DNA of 64,000 bases from Clostridiales bacterium. GTDB taxonomy: Bacteria > Bacillota > Clostridia > Christensenellales > UBA1242. Under the pieces are notes generated by a model. The model was given only the letters and a program-made list of their open reading frames with translations. It was not told where the DNA came from and made no database searches. The position numbers and the translations under genes were made by a program. This document shows positions 1,979 to 46,606 of this stretch, one piece after another (position 1 is the stretch's first letter; every line of letters starts with the position of its first letter). Location of the stretch: positions 14,326 to 78,325 of the forward strand of contig SVHX01000002.1 in the NCBI GenBank assembly GCA_015055665.1, read 5' to 3'.

Positions 1979-3301
1979 ATGAAAAATTTGCATATTTTAC
2001 ACCAAAAGCGTGTTTATTTTATTGGTATTGGCGGAATTAGTATGTCGGGGCTAGCAAAACTTGCTATTGCAAGAGGGGCAATTGTTAGCGGAAGCGATAT
2101 GTCAAGTAGCCCTGTGACCGAAGAACTTGAGGGGATGGGGGCGATTATTCATGTAGGGCATGAGGCTAGCAATATCACCAGTGACATTGATCTAGTGGTA
2201 TATACTCTTGCCATATCTTCGGACAATCCAGAATTGCTTAGGGCGAGAGAGCTTGGCTTGCCGGTAATGGAGCGGGCGGAGATGCTAGGACATATATCCC
2301 GCGAATACGAGCGAGTTGTGGCTATTGCAGGTACTCATGGCAAGACAACTACAACAGCTATGCTTGGTCTTATATGTGTTAGTGCAGGTCTTAATCCTAC
2401 AATTCATCTGGGCGGTAATAGCAAGGCTCTAGGAGGCAACACCATACTTGGTGATAATAAGTATCTAATTGTAGAGGCGTGCGAGTACAAAGAAAGTTTC
2501 CGTTTCCTTAGCCCAGACATTGGGCTTGTTACCAATGTTGAGCTTGATCATGTAGATTATTACAAAAATATCCGAGAGATAACCGAGGCTTTCTCTCGAT
2601 TTGTAACAAGATCGCATATATCTATCTGTAGGCAAGACGATGGCATTGGTGGTAGCAGTACTATCTTATTAGGGCATGACTGGAAACTGGGGCGGGTGGA
2701 ATTTGTCTATAACGGCTACAATTTCGTGGTGTATCATAAGGGTAAAGTCTATGGAGAGTTTAGGCTCAATGTTCTGGGACTACATAACGTTGATAACGCA
2801 TTGTGTGCAATAGCTTGTGCCTATGAGTTAGGAATTGCTAAAGATATAATTGCTCAAGCCATAAGCGACTTTGATGGCGTAGACAGAAGATACGAGTGTA
2901 TACATACATTTTCTACCGGTTGCAGATTAATTATTGATTATGCACATCATCCAACCGAGTTAAAACGCAGTATTGAGGGCATAAACGGCGTTTATCCTCG
3001 CACGCTATATATTTTTCAGCCACACACGTATTCGCGGACTCTTGCGTTATTTGACGACTTTGTTAAGGTGCTTAGTAGTGTGGAGCATCTTATATTATAT
3101 GCAACCTATCCTGCTCGCGAAAAAGAACTGGCTGGAGGTACGGCTAGAGATCTAGCGGAAGCGTTGGGAGAACGTGTAATTTATTGCGAAAATAAAGATG
3201 ATATATTAGAGCAAATTAGCCAAAATAATATGGATTTTGATTGTATTCTTGTGCTTGGTGCTGGTAATTTGGCAGAAATATTAAAGAGAAATCATTTTTA
3301 A
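1979..3301 (+). CDS. murC: UDP-N-acetylmuramate--L-alanine ligase
   Basis: FIGIGGISMSGLA, AGTHGKTTT, EACEY, DYAHHPTE, FQPHTYSRT motifs. Confidence 0.95.
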   Translation: MKNLHILHQKRVYFIGIGGISMSGLAKLAIARGAIVSGSDMSSSPVTEELEGMGAIIHVGHEASNITSDIDLVVYTLAISSDNPELLRARELGLPVMERAEMLGHISREYERVVAIAGTHGKTTTTAMLGLICVSAGLNPTIHLGGNSKALGGNTILGDNKYLIVEACEYKESFRFLSPDIGLVTNVELDHVDYYKNIREITEAFSRFVTRSHISICRQDDGIGGSSTILLGHDWKLGRVEFVYNGYNFVVYHKGKVYGEFRLNVLGLHNVDNALCAIACAYELGIAKDIIAQAISDFDGVDRRYECIHTFSTGCRLIIDYAHHPTELKRSIEGINGVYPRTLYIFQPHTYSRTLALFDDFVKVLSSVEHLILYATYPAREKELAGGTARDLAEALGERVIYCENKDDILEQISQNNMDFDCILVLGAGNLAEILKRNHF

Positions 3302-3387
3302 TAATAAATTATTGCTAAAAGTCTTGACAAATTGTGAAAAGTCATATAAAATATAAAAGCATTAATTTATTAAAAGAGGTGAGTATT

Positions 3388-3594
3388 ATGAAACAAGGCA
3401 TACATCCAGATTATCACGAAGTGGAAGTTGTTTGTGTTTGTGGCTCTAAGTTTAAAACAAAGTCTACAGTTAAAGGCGATACAGTAAAAATTGATGTGTG
3501 TGATAAATGTCACCCATTCTTTACTGGTAAGCAAAAACTTGTTGACACTGCTGGTAGAGTAGAGAAATTCAAGAAAAAACACAATCTAGACTAA
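3388..3594 (+). CDS. rpmE: 50S ribosomal protein L31 (Zn-binding type)
   Basis: [13 protein letters not shown]...[13 protein letters not shown]; start moved to the ATG after RBS gaggtg. Confidence 0.95.
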
Positions 3595-3660
3595 TTGAAA
3601 TCTTAGTAGGCAGGGGTAATTTTTCCTTGCCTATTTTTATTGTTTGTGGAGAGATTGTTT

Positions 3661-4503
3661 TTGGGAAGAATAGAAATATTAAAATGGGCAAAAGATCTTC
3701 TGGGACAGGCTAATGTTCCGGATATAGATGCTAGTGCTGAGCTAATACTAGCTCATATATTGGGAGTGTCAAGAGGTGCTTTGCGTGTAGTGGATATCCT
3801 AACGCCAGAGCAGGAGGCGGTATATATAGAGTTAATTGCTCGTAGGTGCAATCGAGAGCCATTAGATAAGATACTTGGCAATACAGAGTTTATGGGGTTA
3901 AGTATTAGATATAGCGATAATGTGTTGACGCCTAGGCAAGAAACAGAAATCCTTGCCGACAAGATAATTGCCATAATTAACTCGGCTCCTAGCACAAATT
4001 GTCGAGTATTAGATATCTGTTGTGGGAGCGGGTGCATAGGATTATCTATTGCTCGCAATACCGGTGCAAGAGTGACTCTATCAGATATTAGTGAGCTAGC
4101 TCTATTGGAAGTTCGTGCTAATATGGAAGCTAATAATATTGGCAACGACAAGATTGAGATTGTTAGGAGTGATATGTTTAATAATATCACTGGTGAGTAC
4201 GATATAATTGTTAGTAATCCGCCATATTTAAGGACAGATGAGATGCTTAATCTTGAGCCTGAGGTTAAGGACTACGATCCAAGTATATCGCTTGATGGTG
4301 GTGTTGATGGTCTTGAGTTTTATAGAATAATAGCAGACAATTGTAGTCAATATCTAGCTATTGGTGGCAGGATGTATCTTGAGATAGGTATGGGGCAGCA
4401 CGAGGATGTAATTAAGCTCCTAGAGCCGTATTTTGAGAGGGTTGTCGCAGAGAAAGACTATGCGGGTATATATAGATTTATAATAGCGGAGAATAGAAGG
4501 TAA
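3661..4503 (+). CDS. prmC: Release factor glutamine methyltransferase
   Basis: VLTPRQETE, LDICCGSGCI, SNPPY, LDGGVDGL; upstream of prfA; exact start uncertain (3640 or 3661). Confidence 0.92.
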   Translation: MGRIEILKWAKDLLGQANVPDIDASAELILAHILGVSRGALRVVDILTPEQEAVYIELIARRCNREPLDKILGNTEFMGLSIRYSDNVLTPRQETEILADKIIAIINSAPSTNCRVLDICCGSGCIGLSIARNTGARVTLSDISELALLEVRANMEANNIGNDKIEIVRSDMFNNITGEYDIIVSNPPYLRTDEMLNLEPEVKDYDPSISLDGGVDGLEFYRIIADNCSQYLAIGGRMYLEIGMGQHEDVIKLLEPYFERVVAEKDYAGIYRFIIAENRR

Positions 4504-40956: not shown

Positions 40957-41361
40957 ATGAATAAATGTATTTTGATTGGTAATCTTACCAAAGATCCAGA
41001 ATTGACCACAACTTCTAATGGTGTAGCTGTATGTAGATTCTCTATTGCAGTTAGCCGTAGATATAGTAATTCAGATGGCGAGAGAGAGGCAGATTTCCTT
41101 AATATCGTTGTTTGGCGTGGTCCTGGTGAGAACTGCCACAAGTTCCTTAAGAAGGGTAGCAAAGTTGGTATCGTAGGTAATATCCAGAGCAGGTCTTATG
41201 ATGCTGCGGATGGTACTAAGAGATATGTTACCGAGATTGTTGCAGAGGAAGTAGAATTCCTTACAACTCGTAATAGTGAGGATGGCGGTGCTAGACCTGC
41301 TGCTCCTAGTGAGGATGTAGCTAAATTACAACCTATTGATGATGATGGCCTACCATTTTAA
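40957..41361 (+). CDS. ssb: Single-stranded DNA-binding protein
   Basis: MNK.ILIGNLTKDPE; C-terminal DDGLPF. Confidence 0.96.
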   Translation: MNKCILIGNLTKDPELTTTSNGVAVCRFSIAVSRRYSNSDGEREADFLNIVVWRGPGENCHKFLKKGSKVGIVGNIQSRSYDAADGTKRYVTEIVAEEVEFLTTRNSEDGGARPAAPSEDVAKLQPIDDDGLPF

Positions 41362-41444
41362 TTAGACCAATTAGGTTGTGTTGTTTGAAAGAACAATAAG
41401 ACATAATGTTGTCTTGAATATCGAAAATAGAAAAGGAGAGTATC

Positions 41445-41723
41445 ATGAGCGAAGAAGTTATCGAGCAAGTTGCTACTACTGAGGAGAAAGCTGCTCCTAA
41501 GAAGTTTAAGAAAGTAGCAAGAAAGAAAGTTTGCCAATTCTGTGTAGATCATGCAGAAGAGATCGATTACAAAGATGTAGCTAAACTAAAAAGATATATT
41601 ACTGAGAAAGGTAAAATCCTTCCTCGTAGACAAACTGGTACTTGTGCAGAGCACCAGAGAGCATTAACTGTTGCAATTAAGCGTGCAAGAGAAATGGCAT
41701 TACTTCCATATGTTGGAGAGTAA
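41445..41723 (+). CDS. rpsR: 30S ribosomal protein S18
   Basis: KKVCQFC, IDYKD, GKILPRR.TG, AIKRAR..ALLPY. Confidence 0.96.
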
Positions 41724-42144
41724 TTGGGTATTAACTTTTTGAATGTCAAAAAGTTACAAAAACCATTGGGGAATTACGATTTTCCCCAAACCCCTTGAAA
41801 CGTTTTTCAAGTGGATTATATTGATATGAAAAAATGACTCAAACGAGTCATTTTTTTGTGGGTTGCGTATACGAAGTATTGCGACATATTCACTTGGCTG
41901 ATTATATGGATAAAATTATATGTCGCATTTCCTCGGACTCCTAAAACGCCTTTAATAAGGCTGATTTTAATAATAAAAACAAAAAGTCCCGCTGTTGAAG
42001 TTGTAAAACTTCCTTATCGGGGCTTTTTTGTTGCAAAAAACACTATTTTTACTGCTCAAGATAGCATTAGGAGAGCATTTGTTTGATAAATTTTCCAAGA
42101 TATCATTTGGAGGAGAGCAAAAATAGAAACCTAAGTTTTTATAA

Positions 42145-42924
42145 TCACATTCCATCCCATCCAAAAAAATCTTCTTCTTGTGTTGATTGAGAAGATGCGG
42201 ATTGTTGTTCTTTTTGTCTTAGCACTTCTTGTTCGTAAGTTTTTAATTCTTGAATTTCTTCTGCAGACAATGGCATTTTGTATTTACTTTTTTCATTAAA
42301 TAATGCAAGATAATCATCTATCGTAAATGAAAAATCTGAATTAATGTTAACATTATAAATTTGTTGTTTTAGATAATGAAGATAATTTTCGTGTACTTTT
42401 TTAAAAGCGGATTCTCTTCCATTTTTATTTGAATTCTTAAAGTAATTTTCATTTGGTATAAAAGTTTGAGTGATGGCATCATATGCTCCAACAATAAATT
42501 CACTCATAAGAACATCATAAAGAGGGGGCTCGGTGAACAACTCCTTGTCATCATTTGAGATATAAAAAGCTTTTTTTTCAGTAAAAGCTGCTTCTTTCAT
42601 ATCATTAAAACAAAAGTAATCTGGAAATATATAATTCTTAGGTAATGCAATTATTATCGTTCGCTTACTTTCTAAATGCCTATTATGATTTAAAGCATCA
42701 TGAGCAGATTCTCTATATAAATCGGGAGAACCAAATCCGATAGGATAAGAAGTTGAACCAATGTTTTTTGATCCTTCATTATAACCATAAGATCCGGTAT
42801 CTAGTAACAATCCATTTTTAAAAATTGAAGTTGTTATAGAATTGTCGGTGTCGTTTCCACTTCTTCCTGTTCCGTGAATATAATATTTTAAGTTTTCATC
42901 TTCAAATATTTTAGATATGTCCAT
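42145..42924 (-). CDS. Putative ADP-ribosyltransferase-fold protein (cassette 1 cargo)
   Basis: YYIHGT...SIFKNGL N-terminal motif and VL.SEFI.G strand; RBS aaagga. The ORF is solid, the function is tentative. Confidence 0.5.
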   Translation of the reverse strand: MDISKIFEDENLKYYIHGTGRSGNDTDNSITTSIFKNGLLLDTGSYGYNEGSKNIGSTSYPIGFGSPDLYRESAHDALNHNRHLESKRTIIIALPKNYIFPDYFCFNDMKEAAFTEKKAFYISNDDKELFTEPPLYDVLMSEFIVGAYDAITQTFIPNENYFKNSNKNGRESAFKKVHENYLHYLKQQIYNVNINSDFSFTIDDYLALFNEKSKYKMPLSAEEIQELKTYEQEVLRQKEQQSASSQSTQEEDFFGWDGM

Positions 42925-43360
42925 AATTTATCCTTTTAATTTATTATTAGTAGTGTAGCATTGTTGTTGTTTTATGTCAAACTTATATTGTGAGAATTTA
43001 TATTTATACACACCACAATTACTCCTTTTAATAGTAAAAATCATGCTATCTAGGATGGCATACGGATAGCATTTATAAATGAGATTAAGTGAAAGCAGAC
43101 GTTTCTAGGTAAAACTATGGGGTTTGAAGATAAAATTGCTGTACTACAAGTGAGCAGGTTTTATCGGATAATCGGGAACTTTAAATTTCATGACTTTGAT
43201 TCCATATGTTGGAGAGTAATTAAAACAAAATGTTCCTATTATAGGAACTTTTTTTCATTTCTAGAATCATTTGTTGTTGTCTATTCAAAAATGTCATCAT
43301 TAAGCATTGACTTAATTGCTTAACTATGGTATAATACTAATATATAAGGGAGATTGTGTT

Positions 43361-43762
43361 ATGAGTTACGAAGATTTAAAAAAGCATGTGTTGGGTCAAC
43401 AACAAAGTGATGTGTTGGACCAAGATTCTATAATTATTAATTTGGTGGAATCTCTTGCGGATGATTTTGCTAATGAGCATCATAATATTGAAATAAAATC
43501 AAGGCGAGATGAAATTTTAAGTAAAATTGAATCTTTATCTGATGAAGATTTGTCTAGAGCAATAGATTATTGCATGTTGGCCATTAGAAAAGTTCAACAA
43601 GACAGACATCAACTGCTTAATGAGGATGATAATGAATCAAGAAAAACTGTAACAAATGAAGTTTCAACTAATTTAACTATGTTTTATGAAAAAACATTAG
43701 AAATTCTTAAAGGATTTAAAAAACAAGATAAAGAGACTTCATTAGATAATGATGGGAAGTAA
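43361..43762 (+). CDS. Hypothetical helical protein (cassette 2 cargo)
   Basis: Promoter TTGACT-17-TATAAT (43307-43335); RBS aagggag; MSYEDLKK...DNDGK. Confidence 0.75.
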   Translation: MSYEDLKKHVLGQQQSDVLDQDSIIINLVESLADDFANEHHNIEIKSRRDEILSKIESLSDEDLSRAIDYCMLAIRKVQQDRHQLLNEDDNESRKTVTNEVSTNLTMFYEKTLEILKGFKKQDKETSLDNDGK

Positions 43763-44194
43763 TGTAACTTTGTGTCAAATGTCATTGTTCTATAAATTAC
43801 AAAGAGTTATTTTTAAGTATTATTTAGTTATAATAAATAATTTATAATCTTAATACTTGGCTTTGTTTAGACGTTTTTAAGTAGTGCCAGATATTGCAAA
43901 GTTAAAGCAAATAATGGAATTAAGATTTCCATACGTTGGAGAGTAATTTATTAAACTTTTCTTTATCATTAAAGAAAAGTTACAAAAGAAACTGCTGGGT
44001 GCGGATTTCTCCAGACCCTTAAAATGCCTTTAATATGGCTAAAATTAGAAAAATTGAAGTTCCTATTATAGGAACTTTTTTTGTTTCTAGAATTATTTAT
44101 TATTATCTAAAATCCTAAAATGTTATCATTGTGTCATAAAATATTGACTAAATAGTTAAAATCTATTATAATATATATATAAGGAGATAAAATT

Positions 44195-44437
44195 ATGAGC
44201 TTTAAAGATTTAAAAGAATATTTGTCAGACAATCATACATCTAATAGAGTTATTGATCCAAAAGCTGGCGGAGAATATAAACCAGCACCAAATCTCGATT
44301 CAGGTAAAGCGGTTGATGTAAGTGAATATGGCACGCCTGGCGATAAGCATACACCTAACAGAGCTTTTAATCCAAAAGCTGGCGGAAAATATGAACCAGC
44401 ACCAAATTTTGAAGAATTAGGTGATGATGGAATGTAA
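44195..44437 (+). CDS. 80-aa protein with an internal duplication (cassette 3 cargo)
   Basis: Promoter TTGACT-17-TATAAT (44144-44172); RBS aaggag; two copies of D.HT.NR...PKAGG.Y.PAPN. Confidence 0.75.
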   Translation: MSFKDLKEYLSDNHTSNRVIDPKAGGEYKPAPNLDSGKAVDVSEYGTPGDKHTPNRAFNPKAGGKYEPAPNFEELGDDGM

Positions 44438-44657
44438 TACAACTTTGTTGCCGAATGTCATCAAAGTGTCATCGTTCTACAAATTACAATGAGTTATTTG
44501 TAAGTATTAGCAAGTTATAATAAATAATTTGTATTCTTAATGCTTGGCTTTGTTTAGATGTTTTTTCAGCAATACTAAATATTGCAGAGTTAAAAAATAA
44601 TTTAATTAAGATTTCCATATGTTGGAGAGTAGTCATTTGGCATGGCAATCCAATACG

Positions 44658-44693
44658 CAATAGACTTGAGGGATTTAAGTCTATTGTTTTTTT
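44658..44693 (+). terminator. Terminator after the last att copy, probably the original rpsF-ssb-rpsR terminator
   Basis: caatagactt/aagtctattg plus T7. Confidence 0.7.
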
Positions 44694-44833
44694 GTTTGTG
44701 TGGGGGGAAGGGGGTATTGACAATGGGTGAGGGCAGTAGTATAATATTAATAATATAATTAGTAGTATTTGTTTTTTGGGGTAAACTTAAGCGTTGTCTG
44801 AGCGCGATTGGATAAGAAAGATAGGGGTAAGTT

Positions 44834-45754
44834 ATGGGAAAGAATATGGATTTGAAAATGTTGGAAGAGCAGTATCGCAATACTGGATCGTTAGAACATA
44901 GAAATCTTGTCATTGAAGAAGCTTTTAAATTAATATGTGCTAGGACAAGATCGAAGTACATGAGTTGTGGATTAGATATAGATGATGTTATACAGAACTC
45001 GGTTGTTATGTTAACAACTCGACTAGATAAGTACGATAGTTCGCGTGGGGCATTTACATCTTTCGTATACAATACGGTAGACAATGTGGTTAGAAGTATG
45101 CTTAAGAAGTCTTATTCTTCTATTGATGCATTAGAGCATACTAGTATTCATGTGGATAATGAGGATTATGATAGTGGTGCTATAGAGCGTGGCGAGGAAG
45201 ACATAGATACTATGTACGAATCTGTTATGGAGCAAGGGGACTTCCGAGAGGAAGTTGCTATGGAGGACATGGTGGATGGGTTTCTTAATACTCTTAACGA
45301 TATGGAAAGATATACTATAGTGCATAGGCTTGGTCTTAAGGGTGAGCCAAAGCAGAGCATGGTAGCAATTGCAAGGCACTTTGGGTACGAAGGATACAAA
45401 GAATATAAGTTGTTTGTATTTCAACAAGATAAGGTGTTAACTAGGTTTAAAAATTATTGGTTATACCATGGTAAAGAGGTAGACGGTGTGCCTATGGAAA
45501 TACTTGCTACATATGCCGAGCAAACTAATACCGTTAGGCGAAAGTATATATTGCAACATAGGTATGGGTTTAATGGAGCAGAAAAGCAGACTATTGATGA
45601 GATTGCTCGTCACCTTGGGTTACAGCGTATGCAGGTAAAAACAACCATTAGGCAGTCTTTAGATAGGATAAAGATTCATCTAAACAACCAGGCTTTCATT
45701 AAAAAATATGGTTGCGAAGATACCAATGAGAAAGAGCTGGCAGATGAAGAGTAA
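44834..45754 (+). CDS. Divergent sigma-70 family factor with two region-4 domains
   Basis: Region 2 GLDIDDVIQ...DKYDSSRGAFTSF; L...ERY.I.HRLGL...IARHFG and RKYIL.HRYG...TIDEIARHLGL; promoter TTGACA-17-TATAAT at 44717-44745. Confidence 0.75.
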   Translation: MGKNMDLKMLEEQYRNTGSLEHRNLVIEEAFKLICARTRSKYMSCGLDIDDVIQNSVVMLTTRLDKYDSSRGAFTSFVYNTVDNVVRSMLKKSYSSIDALEHTSIHVDNEDYDSGAIERGEEDIDTMYESVMEQGDFREEVAMEDMVDGFLNTLNDMERYTIVHRLGLKGEPKQSMVAIARHFGYEGYKEYKLFVFQQDKVLTRFKNYWLYHGKEVDGVPMEILATYAEQTNTVRRKYILQHRYGFNGAEKQTIDEIARHLGLQRMQVKTTIRQSLDRIKIHLNNQAFIKKYGCEDTNEKELADEE

Positions 45755-45970
45755 GGTAAAATTTATATAGATATTTAAGCGAAGAAACAGCATTATTGAT
45801 ATGAGTTTCTTCGTTTTATCTTTGTCAAATTCTGTCGAAAAGTTGGGTATTGACAAAGACATAAGTTTGTGATATAATTAAGTAACTTGAATATGATATG
45901 TGTTCGTGAAATATTGGTGGAACAAGCAAGAGCGAGCACAAAAATTAAAATATTAAGGGGTAAAAAAATT

Positions 45971-46606
45971 ATGGTTAGAGCAGAGATAAGATATAGAGAT
46001 ATATTGCCTGTAGGTAAGACTGGTCGTAAGAGTTCGGAGATATATTTTGAGGCGACTCAAAAGAGCGAGGGTGCAATTATGCCTCTCAATAGATTGAGTT
46101 CGTATTTAGCGTATAAGGATAAGCATATTCTTGATGCTAAAAGAACTTGTGTCGAGGATGATACTATTAGTAATCAGAATAAGACTGTGCATGTTGCGCA
46201 AGAAATTTCTAAGATAGAGAAAGAAACCTCTCCGTTTAAGAGAATATTTAATGGAAGAGTACGTAAAAGACTGCAAGAATTAGAGCAGATGCGTGGTAAG
46301 TTGATAGGTCAGGGTTCCAAGATGTATTGGGAGGCCAGGGCTTTAGAAGAAGATAAGTATCCTACTACTGTAGAGAAGACTGCGATATATCGAGAAATGC
46401 TTGACAAGCTTGACTTTGTGCTATTGGGATCTGAGCATGATGATAGAGGTATGCACAAGGAGTATTATGCTAGCACACTTACAGGTGACGAATTAATTGC
46501 TAGAGTAGAGCAGATGTATATAGAGGCTTTGGCAAATAGTCGTGTTGCTGTTGATGAATTTAGATTAAAATATGGATATCTTCCAGAGCCAGATGTTATG
46601 GAGTAA
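45971..46606 (+). CDS. Hypothetical protein
   Basis: Promoter TTGACA-17-TATAAT (45850-45878); RBS aagggg; terminator 46608-46641. Confidence 0.7.
   Translation: MVRAEIRYRDILPVGKTGRKSSEIYFEATQKSEGAIMPLNRLSSYLAYKDKHILDAKRTCVEDDTISNQNKTVHVAQEISKIEKETSPFKRIFNGRVRKRLQELEQMRGKLIGQGSKMYWEARALEEDKYPTTVEKTAIYREMLDKLDFVLLGSEHDDRGMHKEYYASTLTGDELIARVEQMYIEALANSRVAVDEFRLKYGYLPEPDVME

Follow-up and report, generated by a model that had tools for sequence, protein, structure and literature searches.

Copies of the rpsR 3' end delimit a tandem array of small AT-rich units in an uncultured gut clostridium: probable accretion of integrase-less elements at a ribosomal protein gene

The window analysed here, a stretch of 64,000 nucleotides from contig SVHX01000002.1 of a Clostridiales bacterium (assembly GCA_015055665.1), contains, directly behind the ribosomal protein gene rpsR, an array of three AT-rich units that are separated from one another by copies of the rpsR 3' end. 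We consider it reasonably probable that this array arose by tandem accretion of integrase-less derivatives of integrative elements at an attachment site (attB) formed by the end of rpsR, in the manner of the cis-mobilizable elements (CIMEs). The evidence for this interpretation includes the following: the last of the four rpsR-end copies matches the native end of the gene in relatives, two of the three units are built on the same chassis with exchanged gene interiors, and a congener (G013) harbors, behind its own rpsR, an integrase-bearing element with an arm homologous to those of the two units.

The array and the displaced native end of rpsR

The rpsR gene is intact (41445–41723, plus strand; 92 amino acids; Pfam Ribosomal_S18, E 9e-28), and its last 22 nt are the first of four copies of a core sequence, all on the plus strand: copy 1 (41704–41725), which forms an attL-like junction between rpsR and the left end of the first unit, copy 2 (43200–43221), copy 3 (43927–43948) and copy 4, which starts at 44613 and occupies, together with its terminator, positions 44613–44697. 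The copies show 0, 0, 1 and 2 mismatches, respectively, and no match to the 22-nt sequence was found in any of 100 dinucleotide shuffles. The single difference in copy 3 is a change from TAT to TAC, and the two in copy 4 are the stop TAG and the following TC, such that the switch from TAA-TT to TAG-TC at the stop codon and its flank is seen only at the last copy. The source genome comprises 1,260,317 nt in 18 contigs and is 96.5% complete, the contig of the window (C9) being 133 kb long; in the whole-genome search that the initial annotation of this DNA had proposed, the 19-nt core, with up to 2 mismatches allowed, was found nowhere beyond the four sites of the array.

Successive cores are spaced 1496, 727 and 686 nt apart, and we refer to the corresponding units as A, B and C. 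The GC content is 0.25–0.33 across about 42050–44450, compared with 0.35–0.43 in the flanks, and each unit contains one plausible open reading frame (ORF), of 259 codons on the minus strand in A, 133 in B and 80 in C. Eight terminator-like sites were found in the region where 1.3 are expected; those behind cores 2, 3 and 4 (43232, 44056 and 44657) come from the scan, and the hairpin and T-run behind core 1, at about 41830–41862, was read by eye and is absent from the scan listing. The three best promoter matches of the region precede the ORF of unit B (11/12), the ORF of unit C (11/12) and a sigma-like gene located behind the array (12/12). Searches for Phage_integrase (PF00589) and Resolvase (PF00239), the only two recombinase families examined, gave no match on contig C9. 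The fourfold rpsR end, the three AT-rich units of about 1.5 kb, 727 bp and 686 bp with a single gene each, the hairpin with T-run behind every core and the lack of a recombinase in or near the units had all been described in the initial annotation, and these descriptions stand within the scope of the searches given above.

The single rpsR genes of two congeners, G005 and G019, have the TAG stop and are followed by a hairpin and T-run, as behind copy 4 (terminator at 44657–44687). Because of this match to the native end, copy 4, TAG-TCATTTGG, is the displaced original end of rpsR, attR-like in its position, and the rpsR sites of G005 and G019 are unoccupied. The earlier suggestion that the last copy is the ancestral rpsR end is thereby borne out, and the empty sites that were to be sought in relatives are found in these two genomes. 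The core is present in 16 of the 41 relatives examined, with several real copies only in the source genome (a second match in G008 falls within an unrelated coding region); at the family level, 18 of 201 genomes carry it, and more than one copy occurs only in the source genome (four) and in G013 (two). Among the 10 relatives compared that carry rpsR, the order rpsF-ssb-rpsR is kept and the genes downstream differ, and the site is therefore a synteny break.

Two units built on one chassis

Units B and C are homologous in two separate stretches, to which the repeats D1 and D5–D8 correspond. The first encompasses an identical 24-nt terminator, a TGTCATC box, a promoter of the form TTGACT-17-TATAAT, a ribosome-binding site and the first ~10 codons of the ORF (MSYEDLKK in B, MSFKDLKE in C), and the second encompasses the last ~6 codons of the ORF and a ~170-nt arm that extends up to the core. 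The interiors of the two ORFs are unalignable, and unit C possesses an extra module of 100 nt after its core relative to B. All four arms lie on the plus strand. The left arm of unit B (43222–43360) comprises the terminator (43232–43255), a TGTCATC box at 43292, the promoter (43307–43335) and the ribosome-binding site, and its right arm (43763–43926) is P-arm-like, with TGTCA boxes, a CTTGGCT block and a 102-nt repeat (D1) that is 88% identical to its counterpart in C. In unit C, the left arm (44054–44194) consists of a terminator (44056–44085), degenerate boxes at about 44120–44140, the promoter (44144–44172) and a ribosome-binding site, and the right arm (44440–44612) contains direct TGTCATC boxes at 44456 and 44467 and the CTTGGCT block. 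Both promoters, each an 11/12 match, are preceded by a terminator. Units B and C, 1,435 nt in all, contain 3 copies of the TGTCATC heptamer, compared with 140 in the 1.26 Mb of the genome, and the direct pair in unit C is the sole such pair within 30 nt in the source genome. These boxes are candidate integrase sites, presumably of the arm type.

Based on these correspondences, units B and C are sister copies of one 0.7-kb chassis that keeps both attachment (att) arms. Since two independent deletions would not share both boundaries, the two units can be traced to one integrase-less ancestor, and we infer that the chassis already existed without an integrase before the second copy arose. With respect to the origin of this second copy, re-integration with an integrase acting in trans is slightly favored over unequal crossing-over between cores followed by replacement of the cargo, and the conservation of the cores fits both routes alike. 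The initial annotation had confined the repeats to the rpsR end; the 22-nt copies hold, whereas their limitation to 22 nt does not, given that B and C share about 170 nt on both core sides. A second correction is that unit A, described below, is composite.

A pattern for the attR-type junction (end of the P arm plus core) had no match in IMG/VR, one in metagenomes of the Joint Genome Institute (JGI) and two in GTDB representatives; the matches at L051 and L100 are attributed to chance, being in DNA of 66–69% GC, and the match at L101 is not independent of G013. BLAST searches with the arm of unit B over the genus gave short AT-rich matches with E-values of 1e-4 to 1e-6, which were not counted as homologues. 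A separate observation concerns G005, where an island at about 2090–4050 of locus L042 (contig C12 of that genome, in rpsR orientation) holds three genes with a TGTCATC box before each; the first module of this island resembles the left arm of unit B, and no second rpsR core is present. The boxes may themselves mark cassette boundaries there.

An integrase module behind the rpsR gene of a congener

Behind the stop codon of rpsR, G013 has a terminator and three TGTCAT(C) boxes, after which a module of int, Xis-like and Cro-like genes begins on the opposite strand. The integrase consists of 432 amino acids (PF00589, 93 bits; SAM-like N-terminal domain; PHROG integrase, E 4.5e-65), the Xis-like gene encodes a 96-residue protein with an HTH_17 domain, and the next gene, for a Cro/C1-type regulator, is followed by many small ORFs. 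A second core is located on another contig of G013, 2.65 kb from the contig end, and the arm that precedes it contains two direct TGTCATC boxes and the CTTGGCT block. Over about 190 nt, this attR-type arm can be aligned with the right arm of either unit, B or C; the local alignment reaches a z-score of 16.8 for C and 5.6 for B, with 0 of 500 shuffles attaining either score. We infer that both cores of G013 bound one element. Because an integrase module lies behind rpsR and a second core with a homologous arm accompanies it, the rpsR 3' end is very probably a real tyrosine-integrase attB in this genus, and the logic of tyrosine integration at a gene 3' end, on which the initial annotation had relied, finds a concrete counterpart in G013.

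The source genome encodes recombinases elsewhere, with three matches to PF00589 and two to PF00239, located on contigs C12, C2 and C4. Two adjacent large serine recombinases (frames of 580 and 555 amino acids) lie at the start of C12 (108–3780), and phage-type tyrosine integrases are found on C2 (53284–53778) and at the start of C4 (493–960). They represent further mobile elements of this small genome, and none of them has the rpsR core nearby. As for the locus that holds the G013 integrase module (L103, positions 1–20000 of contig C3), it contains, beyond that module, a reverse-transcriptase-like gene (PHROG polymerase/reverse transcriptase, E 2.5e-42), a second integrase of 333 amino acids and an RtcB-like ligase, and a 23-nt repeat with a ~34-nt spacer at the start of the contig resembles a CRISPR (clustered regularly interspaced short palindromic repeats) array.

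Unit A and the RNA motif behind cores 1 and 3

Cores 1 and 3 are each followed by a motif of ~100 nt, here termed the HP motif, which consists of an A/U-rich hairpin, the sequence ACAAAAA (ACAAAA in the first copy) and a G/C hairpin whose loop, UUGCGAUU, pairs with AAAACGCUUUU downstream to form a pseudoknot. The copy in unit A lies at 41725–41829 (cmsearch, 98.5 bits), and the copy at 43951–44053 (69.5 bits), likewise on the plus strand, is the additional module that unit C shows when aligned with B. A covariance model detects the motif in 18 of the 41 genomes of the genus, with 1–4 copies each (L105–L133); most copies start 0–7 nt after the stop codon of an upstream gene, such as ssb, rpsR, recR, a leucyl-tRNA-synthetase-like gene (leuS-like) or others. 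In an alignment of 29 copies, 85.3% of the cells are paired; shuffles give 73.6%, and none of 500 attains the observed value. The 3-bp pseudoknot that joins the hairpin 2 loop to the tail further downstream, although absent from the model, is paired in 93.8%. All three pseudoknot pairs covary on both sides (GCG/CGC, GAG/CTC, ACG/CGT, GCA/TGC, CGG/CCG and GGG/CCC). Rfam 15 gives no match in the region at E<=1. The motif could be a new element of 3' untranslated regions (3' UTRs) or a small mobile RNA-coding repeat, and it may interest RNA biologists more than the array itself.

The distribution of the HP motif indicates that the ~100 nt behind cores 1 and 3 are not att-specific DNA. Elements that insert into gene ends are expected to supply a replacement 3' end. 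As the motif follows stop codons, units A and C would therefore have brought a full replacement end for rpsR, composed of the stop, the 3' UTR motif and a terminator. In G016, a second HP motif located 3.9 kb downstream of rpsR has no rpsR-end repeat before it, and therefore no array exists there.

Following core 1, unit A displays the complete HP motif, the hairpin and T-run that close the replacement 3' UTR (41830–41862, plus strand), a second, truncated HP motif of which only the 3' half is left (41924–41969, plus strand; repeat D4, 76% identical to 44002–44047; nhmmer, E 1.4e-4) and a further terminator, terminator 2 (GTCCCG...CGGGGC and T-run), with its flank (41975–42090), which is homologous to DNA found in G005 and G019 beyond the native terminator of rpsR. 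The truncated second motif points to a fusion of two remnants. At its other end, the right arm of unit A (42925–43199, plus strand) shows no relationship to those of B, C or G013, local alignment giving z-scores of -0.1 and -1.0 relative to 500 shuffles. Taken together, unit A is unrelated to B and C and composite, fused from two older pieces, and the array would therefore record at least four insertion events. The variant joints described below fit an order in which unit A, next to rpsR, is the newest arrival.

Cargo proteins and genes behind the array

The three cargo proteins, all acidic (isoelectric points of 4.7–5.0), belong to no family in Pfam, PHROGs or PADLOC. The 259-residue protein of unit A (42145–42924, minus strand) has, besides itself, four relatives at 51–62% identity that likewise define no family; it is absent from all 40 other genomes of the genus and has no match in IMG/VR or in 50,697 phage records. 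Its AlphaFold2 model is poor (pLDDT, the predicted local distance difference test, 57), and neither fold nor function is drawn from it; a wide search with this model in VIA-align retrieved the C-terminal helices only, the best Z of 6.2 being below the noise guide of the tool. An ADP-ribosyltransferase-like N-terminal half, suspected from sequence motifs, found nothing in its support and was dropped. The 133-residue protein of unit B (43361–43762, plus strand), predicted to be helical, is an orphan that retrieves only itself among 5.8 billion clusters, and the ESM Atlas offers generic helical-bundle look-alikes without a usable feature match. The 80-residue protein of unit C (44195–44437, plus strand) is made up of two repeats of 38 amino acids (HTPNR..PKAGGEYKPAPN; repeat D3). 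It has one relative (P0008), a 126-residue protein with 73% identity that contains three repeats instead of two and is identical in the first 15 and the last 5 residues; the number of repeats therefore varies between strains. The AT-rich composition of the units, the absence of the unit A cargo from the 40 other genomes and the orphan status of the unit B cargo argue for a foreign origin.

Directly behind the native rpsR terminator, at 44834–45754, lies the gene for a 306-residue sigma-70-like protein with regions 2 and 4 (PHROG phage sigma factor, E 5.5e-13), served by the promoter with a 12/12 match. It is followed at 45887–46606 by the gene for a 239-residue protein without a family. In an ORF comparison with G005, the sigma-like ORF had no match there, and the 239-residue protein had no more than a weak homologue. 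The whole stretch from rpsR to an sbcC-like gene may be an older island.

The array in fecal metagenomes

Seven fecal-metagenome runs contain at least 60% of the sampled words of 41300–45000, and four of these (X2, X5, X6 and X7) were compared in the form of contigs, which drop rare variants; X7 has no contig cover over 42044–42911, a gap that carries no information as no contig bridges it. Each of the four cores is crossed with 0 mismatches by contigs of X2, which extend into unique sequence on both sides, and several are crossed by those of X5, X6 and X7. Since these contigs were assembled independently, the array is not an assembly artefact.

Several joints in these runs differ from those of the array. 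In X6, an rpsR core is followed by 19 other letters and then by a left end of the B/C type (91% identity). In X5 and X6, the HP motif and another terminator are joined to the left part of the chassis, which sits directly on the arm boxes without promoter or ORF, and in X2, the HP motif is fused to terminator 2. Together with the 126-residue variant of the unit C cargo, these joints suggest a population of chassis variants.

Origin of the array

In the mechanism that we propose, an integrase of the G013 type would recombine the final codons of rpsR with an attP site in which a core is flanked by two arms. The incoming copy would rebuild the end of the gene, with its codons, stop, 3' UTR and terminator, and each insertion would shift the older units and the original rpsR end downstream. 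Repeated insertions would thereby stack units in tandem, and loss of int would leave att-flanked units without an integrase, that is, CIMEs, among them the mini-element family of B and C, with both att arms, a strong promoter and one tiny exchangeable ORF. All insertions in the array would have been integrase-mediated, and the parents were likely phage-like rather than conjugative. Because no cognate integrase for the cores was found in the source genome, the units look stranded at present.

A more dynamic picture can be entertained at two levels. If the chassis is still mobile, B and C would be the smallest integrative elements of the lambda type, att-cassettes of ~0.7 kb that the Int and Xis proteins of a temperate phage excise, circularise and re-integrate at rpsR in trans; we hold this to be unlikely, and if true, it would amount to a phage-driven, integron-like collection and exchange of single accessory genes in small-genome gut Clostridia. 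The initial annotation went further and proposed an integron-like stack loaded in trans, that is, an active platform at rpsR where a dedicated integrase loads, unloads and shuffles purpose-built 0.7-kb cassettes, which we find improbable. In its favor, B and C retain both arms, their cores are intact and cargo is the sole difference between them, chassis variants are present in other runs (one of them empty and one directly behind rpsR), and the cargo of unit C has a variant with identical termini; the lack of an integrase inside the units and the integrase logic provided by G013 agree with it as well. It is opposed by the lack of an integrase beside the array or on the 133-kb contig and of a cognate one in the genome, by the consensus promoter that B and C each bring along in place of a common promoter (Pc), and by a repeat listing that contains no inverted repeats at the unit ends except palindromic terminators, and no IntI or attC-like site. 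Moreover, the order of units is the same in the four further runs, as though the array were fixed, and no circle joint appears in the contigs; cores in several copies are found in 2 of 201 family genomes, and the attR-type junction has no related match in IMG/VR, the JGI metagenomes or the GTDB representatives, except for the one that is not independent of G013.

At the opposite extreme, three or four full-size prophages or islands might have arrived in succession and each shrunk by its own internal deletion, no mini-element ever having moved. Decayed tandem elements are stated to be usual at such sites in the portions of the literature consulted (PMC5704250; bioRxiv 10.1101/2020.12.28.424599), unit A is visibly fused from truncated pieces, and a helper integrase is absent from the searches of the source genome. 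Such independent decay is nevertheless distinctly improbable to us, as the two deletion boundaries, the promoter, the ribosome-binding site and the first and last codons are common to B and C, and as the int gene, which in G013 is located on the opposite strand immediately within the left arm, has left no trace in either unit. Site-specific recombination could also be dispensed with altogether, if replication slippage, unequal crossing-over or homologous recombination with foreign DNA linked to rpsR had duplicated the rpsR end and genes had been gained afterwards. The HP motif behind cores 1 and 3 is an ordinary 3' UTR of congeners and thus importable by homologous recombination, and the G005 island lacks a second core. 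Homologous recombination alone, however, makes no gene-end direct repeats around unrelated DNA; the end of the repeat coincides with the core of the integrase-bearing element of G013, where the adjoining arm is homologous, and the switch from TAA-TT to TAG-TC is confined to the last copy, as predicted for attL and attR products, which leaves this route with very little credit in our estimate. Hardly any credence, finally, is given to a repeat-induced chimera in a metagenome-assembled genome: the assembly is fragmented, with 18 contigs, but the separately assembled X2 contigs cross each core with 0 differences, and contigs of X5, X6 and X7 cross several.

The reading that we prefer, accretion of CIME-type derivatives, has to face a number of observations that weigh against it. 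Wherever the four further runs provide coverage, the A-B-C array is 100% identical, and it therefore looks fixed rather than dynamic. Neither a circle joint nor an excision product nor an empty-site joint, from rpsR to the native end, was seen in the contigs, which hide rare forms. The sides of the variant joints are 25–55 nt long at 90–95% identity and may come from other organisms, and these joints are therefore hints only. In contrast to the right arms, the left arms of B and C do not resemble the attL arm of G013 significantly (z 2.3 and 1.8, with 19 and 36 of 500 shuffles reaching the score), and only a layout of terminator, about 40 nt and box is common to them. The candidate attR and attL of G013 lie on different contigs, and the ends of C3 and C4 do not overlap. 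An integrase of the G013 type occurs in 1 of 41 genus genomes (E<=1e-20) and has no relative in IMG/VR, so that the helper must be rare, and its only relative in the source genome, on contig C2, shows 28% identity over 205 amino acids. The conservation of the cores, with 0–2 differences in 22 nt, is not significantly better than the arm divergence of 12–14% allows. Lastly, G005 carries chassis-like modules (terminator 2, TGTCATC boxes and promoters) beyond its native terminator and without a second core, whence module movement at this locus does not proceed entirely via the rpsR core, and other recombination routes probably shape the locus as well.

If a phage integrase acting in trans can move units with this chassis, these would represent a minimal hitch-hiking element and a simple scaffold of natural origin for inserting single genes at a safe site of the chromosome in uncultured gut Clostridia. 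Even if the units are stranded, the array documents the rpsR end as an integration hot spot outside staphylococci, shows how tiny orphan genes with strong promoters come to be fixed downstream of an essential operon in a genome of 1.26 Mb, and supplies candidate integrase arm sites in the form of the TGTCATC boxes.

Comparison with known systems

Integrons, to which the array bears a superficial likeness, combine an adjacent intI gene with short folded attC sites and mostly promoterless cassettes that are read from Pc. Their cassettes are single-gene, non-autonomous and lined up in tandem at one site. The array differs from them in having no adjacent integrase (PF00589 is not found on the contig), att arms of about 300 nt that resemble those of lambda, and promoters of its own; the ends of the units are direct repeats, and no attC-like inverted repeats were noticed, a dedicated attC model not having been run. 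An assignment to phage satellites, such as phage-inducible chromosomal islands (PICIs) or SaPI-like elements, is contradicted by the single ORF per unit and the lack of any PHROG family, and one to miniature inverted-repeat transposable elements by the lack of terminal inverted repeats at the unit ends, the flanking repeat being a gene end of 19–22 nt.

Among elements that occupy gene 3' ends, the array shows the restored gene (rpsR, 92 amino acids) and the displaced original end, and an integrase of its own is seen only in G013. The tandem islands at ssrA of Dehalococcoides are likewise integrated site-specifically at the 3' end of a single-copy gene (PMC3146451); those islands are large. Tycheposons of Prochlorococcus, as far as the accessible text describes them, push older elements inward when new ones arrive at the proximal gene end, leave partial target copies in between and pile up as remnants (bioRxiv 10.1101/2020.12.28.424599). 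Unlike here, they target a tRNA gene, both elements and remnants exceed the present units in size, and a sub-kb chassis family does not feature in those portions of the text. The rpsR 3' end itself is a hub for islands of the SaPI4 type in staphylococci, according to the excerpts consulted (bioRxiv 10.1101/2020.09.30.320143). The SaPI4/SscPIC2865-type islands share with the array the rpsR end as target and rpsR-end direct repeats and, by the same partial account, carry a tyrosine integrase; they belong to the 15-kb class, contain int together with satellite genes and have another core, of 15 bp, whereas the units here are without int.

The closest parallel is provided by the CIMEs, which have lost their integration genes, keep attL and attR, lie in tandem at the 3' end of the target following a three-step accretion, and can be mobilised in cis by a helper, as set out in the sections available of PMC5704250. 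The units behind rpsR resemble CIMEs of the streptococcal ICESt1/ICESt3 type in being int-less, att-flanked and arranged in tandem at a gene 3' end: they are bounded by cores with four unique copies, and no integration or transfer genes are found in them (PF00589/PF00239, Pfam, PHROG and PADLOC). As to parentage, B and C are homologous to G013 in the right arm and weakly alike in the left (z about 2), the arm of A is unrelated, and the parent elements have not been found. The differences from the streptococcal CIMEs are that two of the units measure only 0.7 kb and hold a single tiny ORF with its own promoter and a swapped interior. The kind of element is thus a known one; the literature was not searched for att-flanked cassettes below 1 kb in particular, and within that limit the unusual features are the miniature size, the chassis that is shared while its micro-ORFs are swapped, and the occurrence in uncultured gut Clostridia with a genome of 1.26 Mb.

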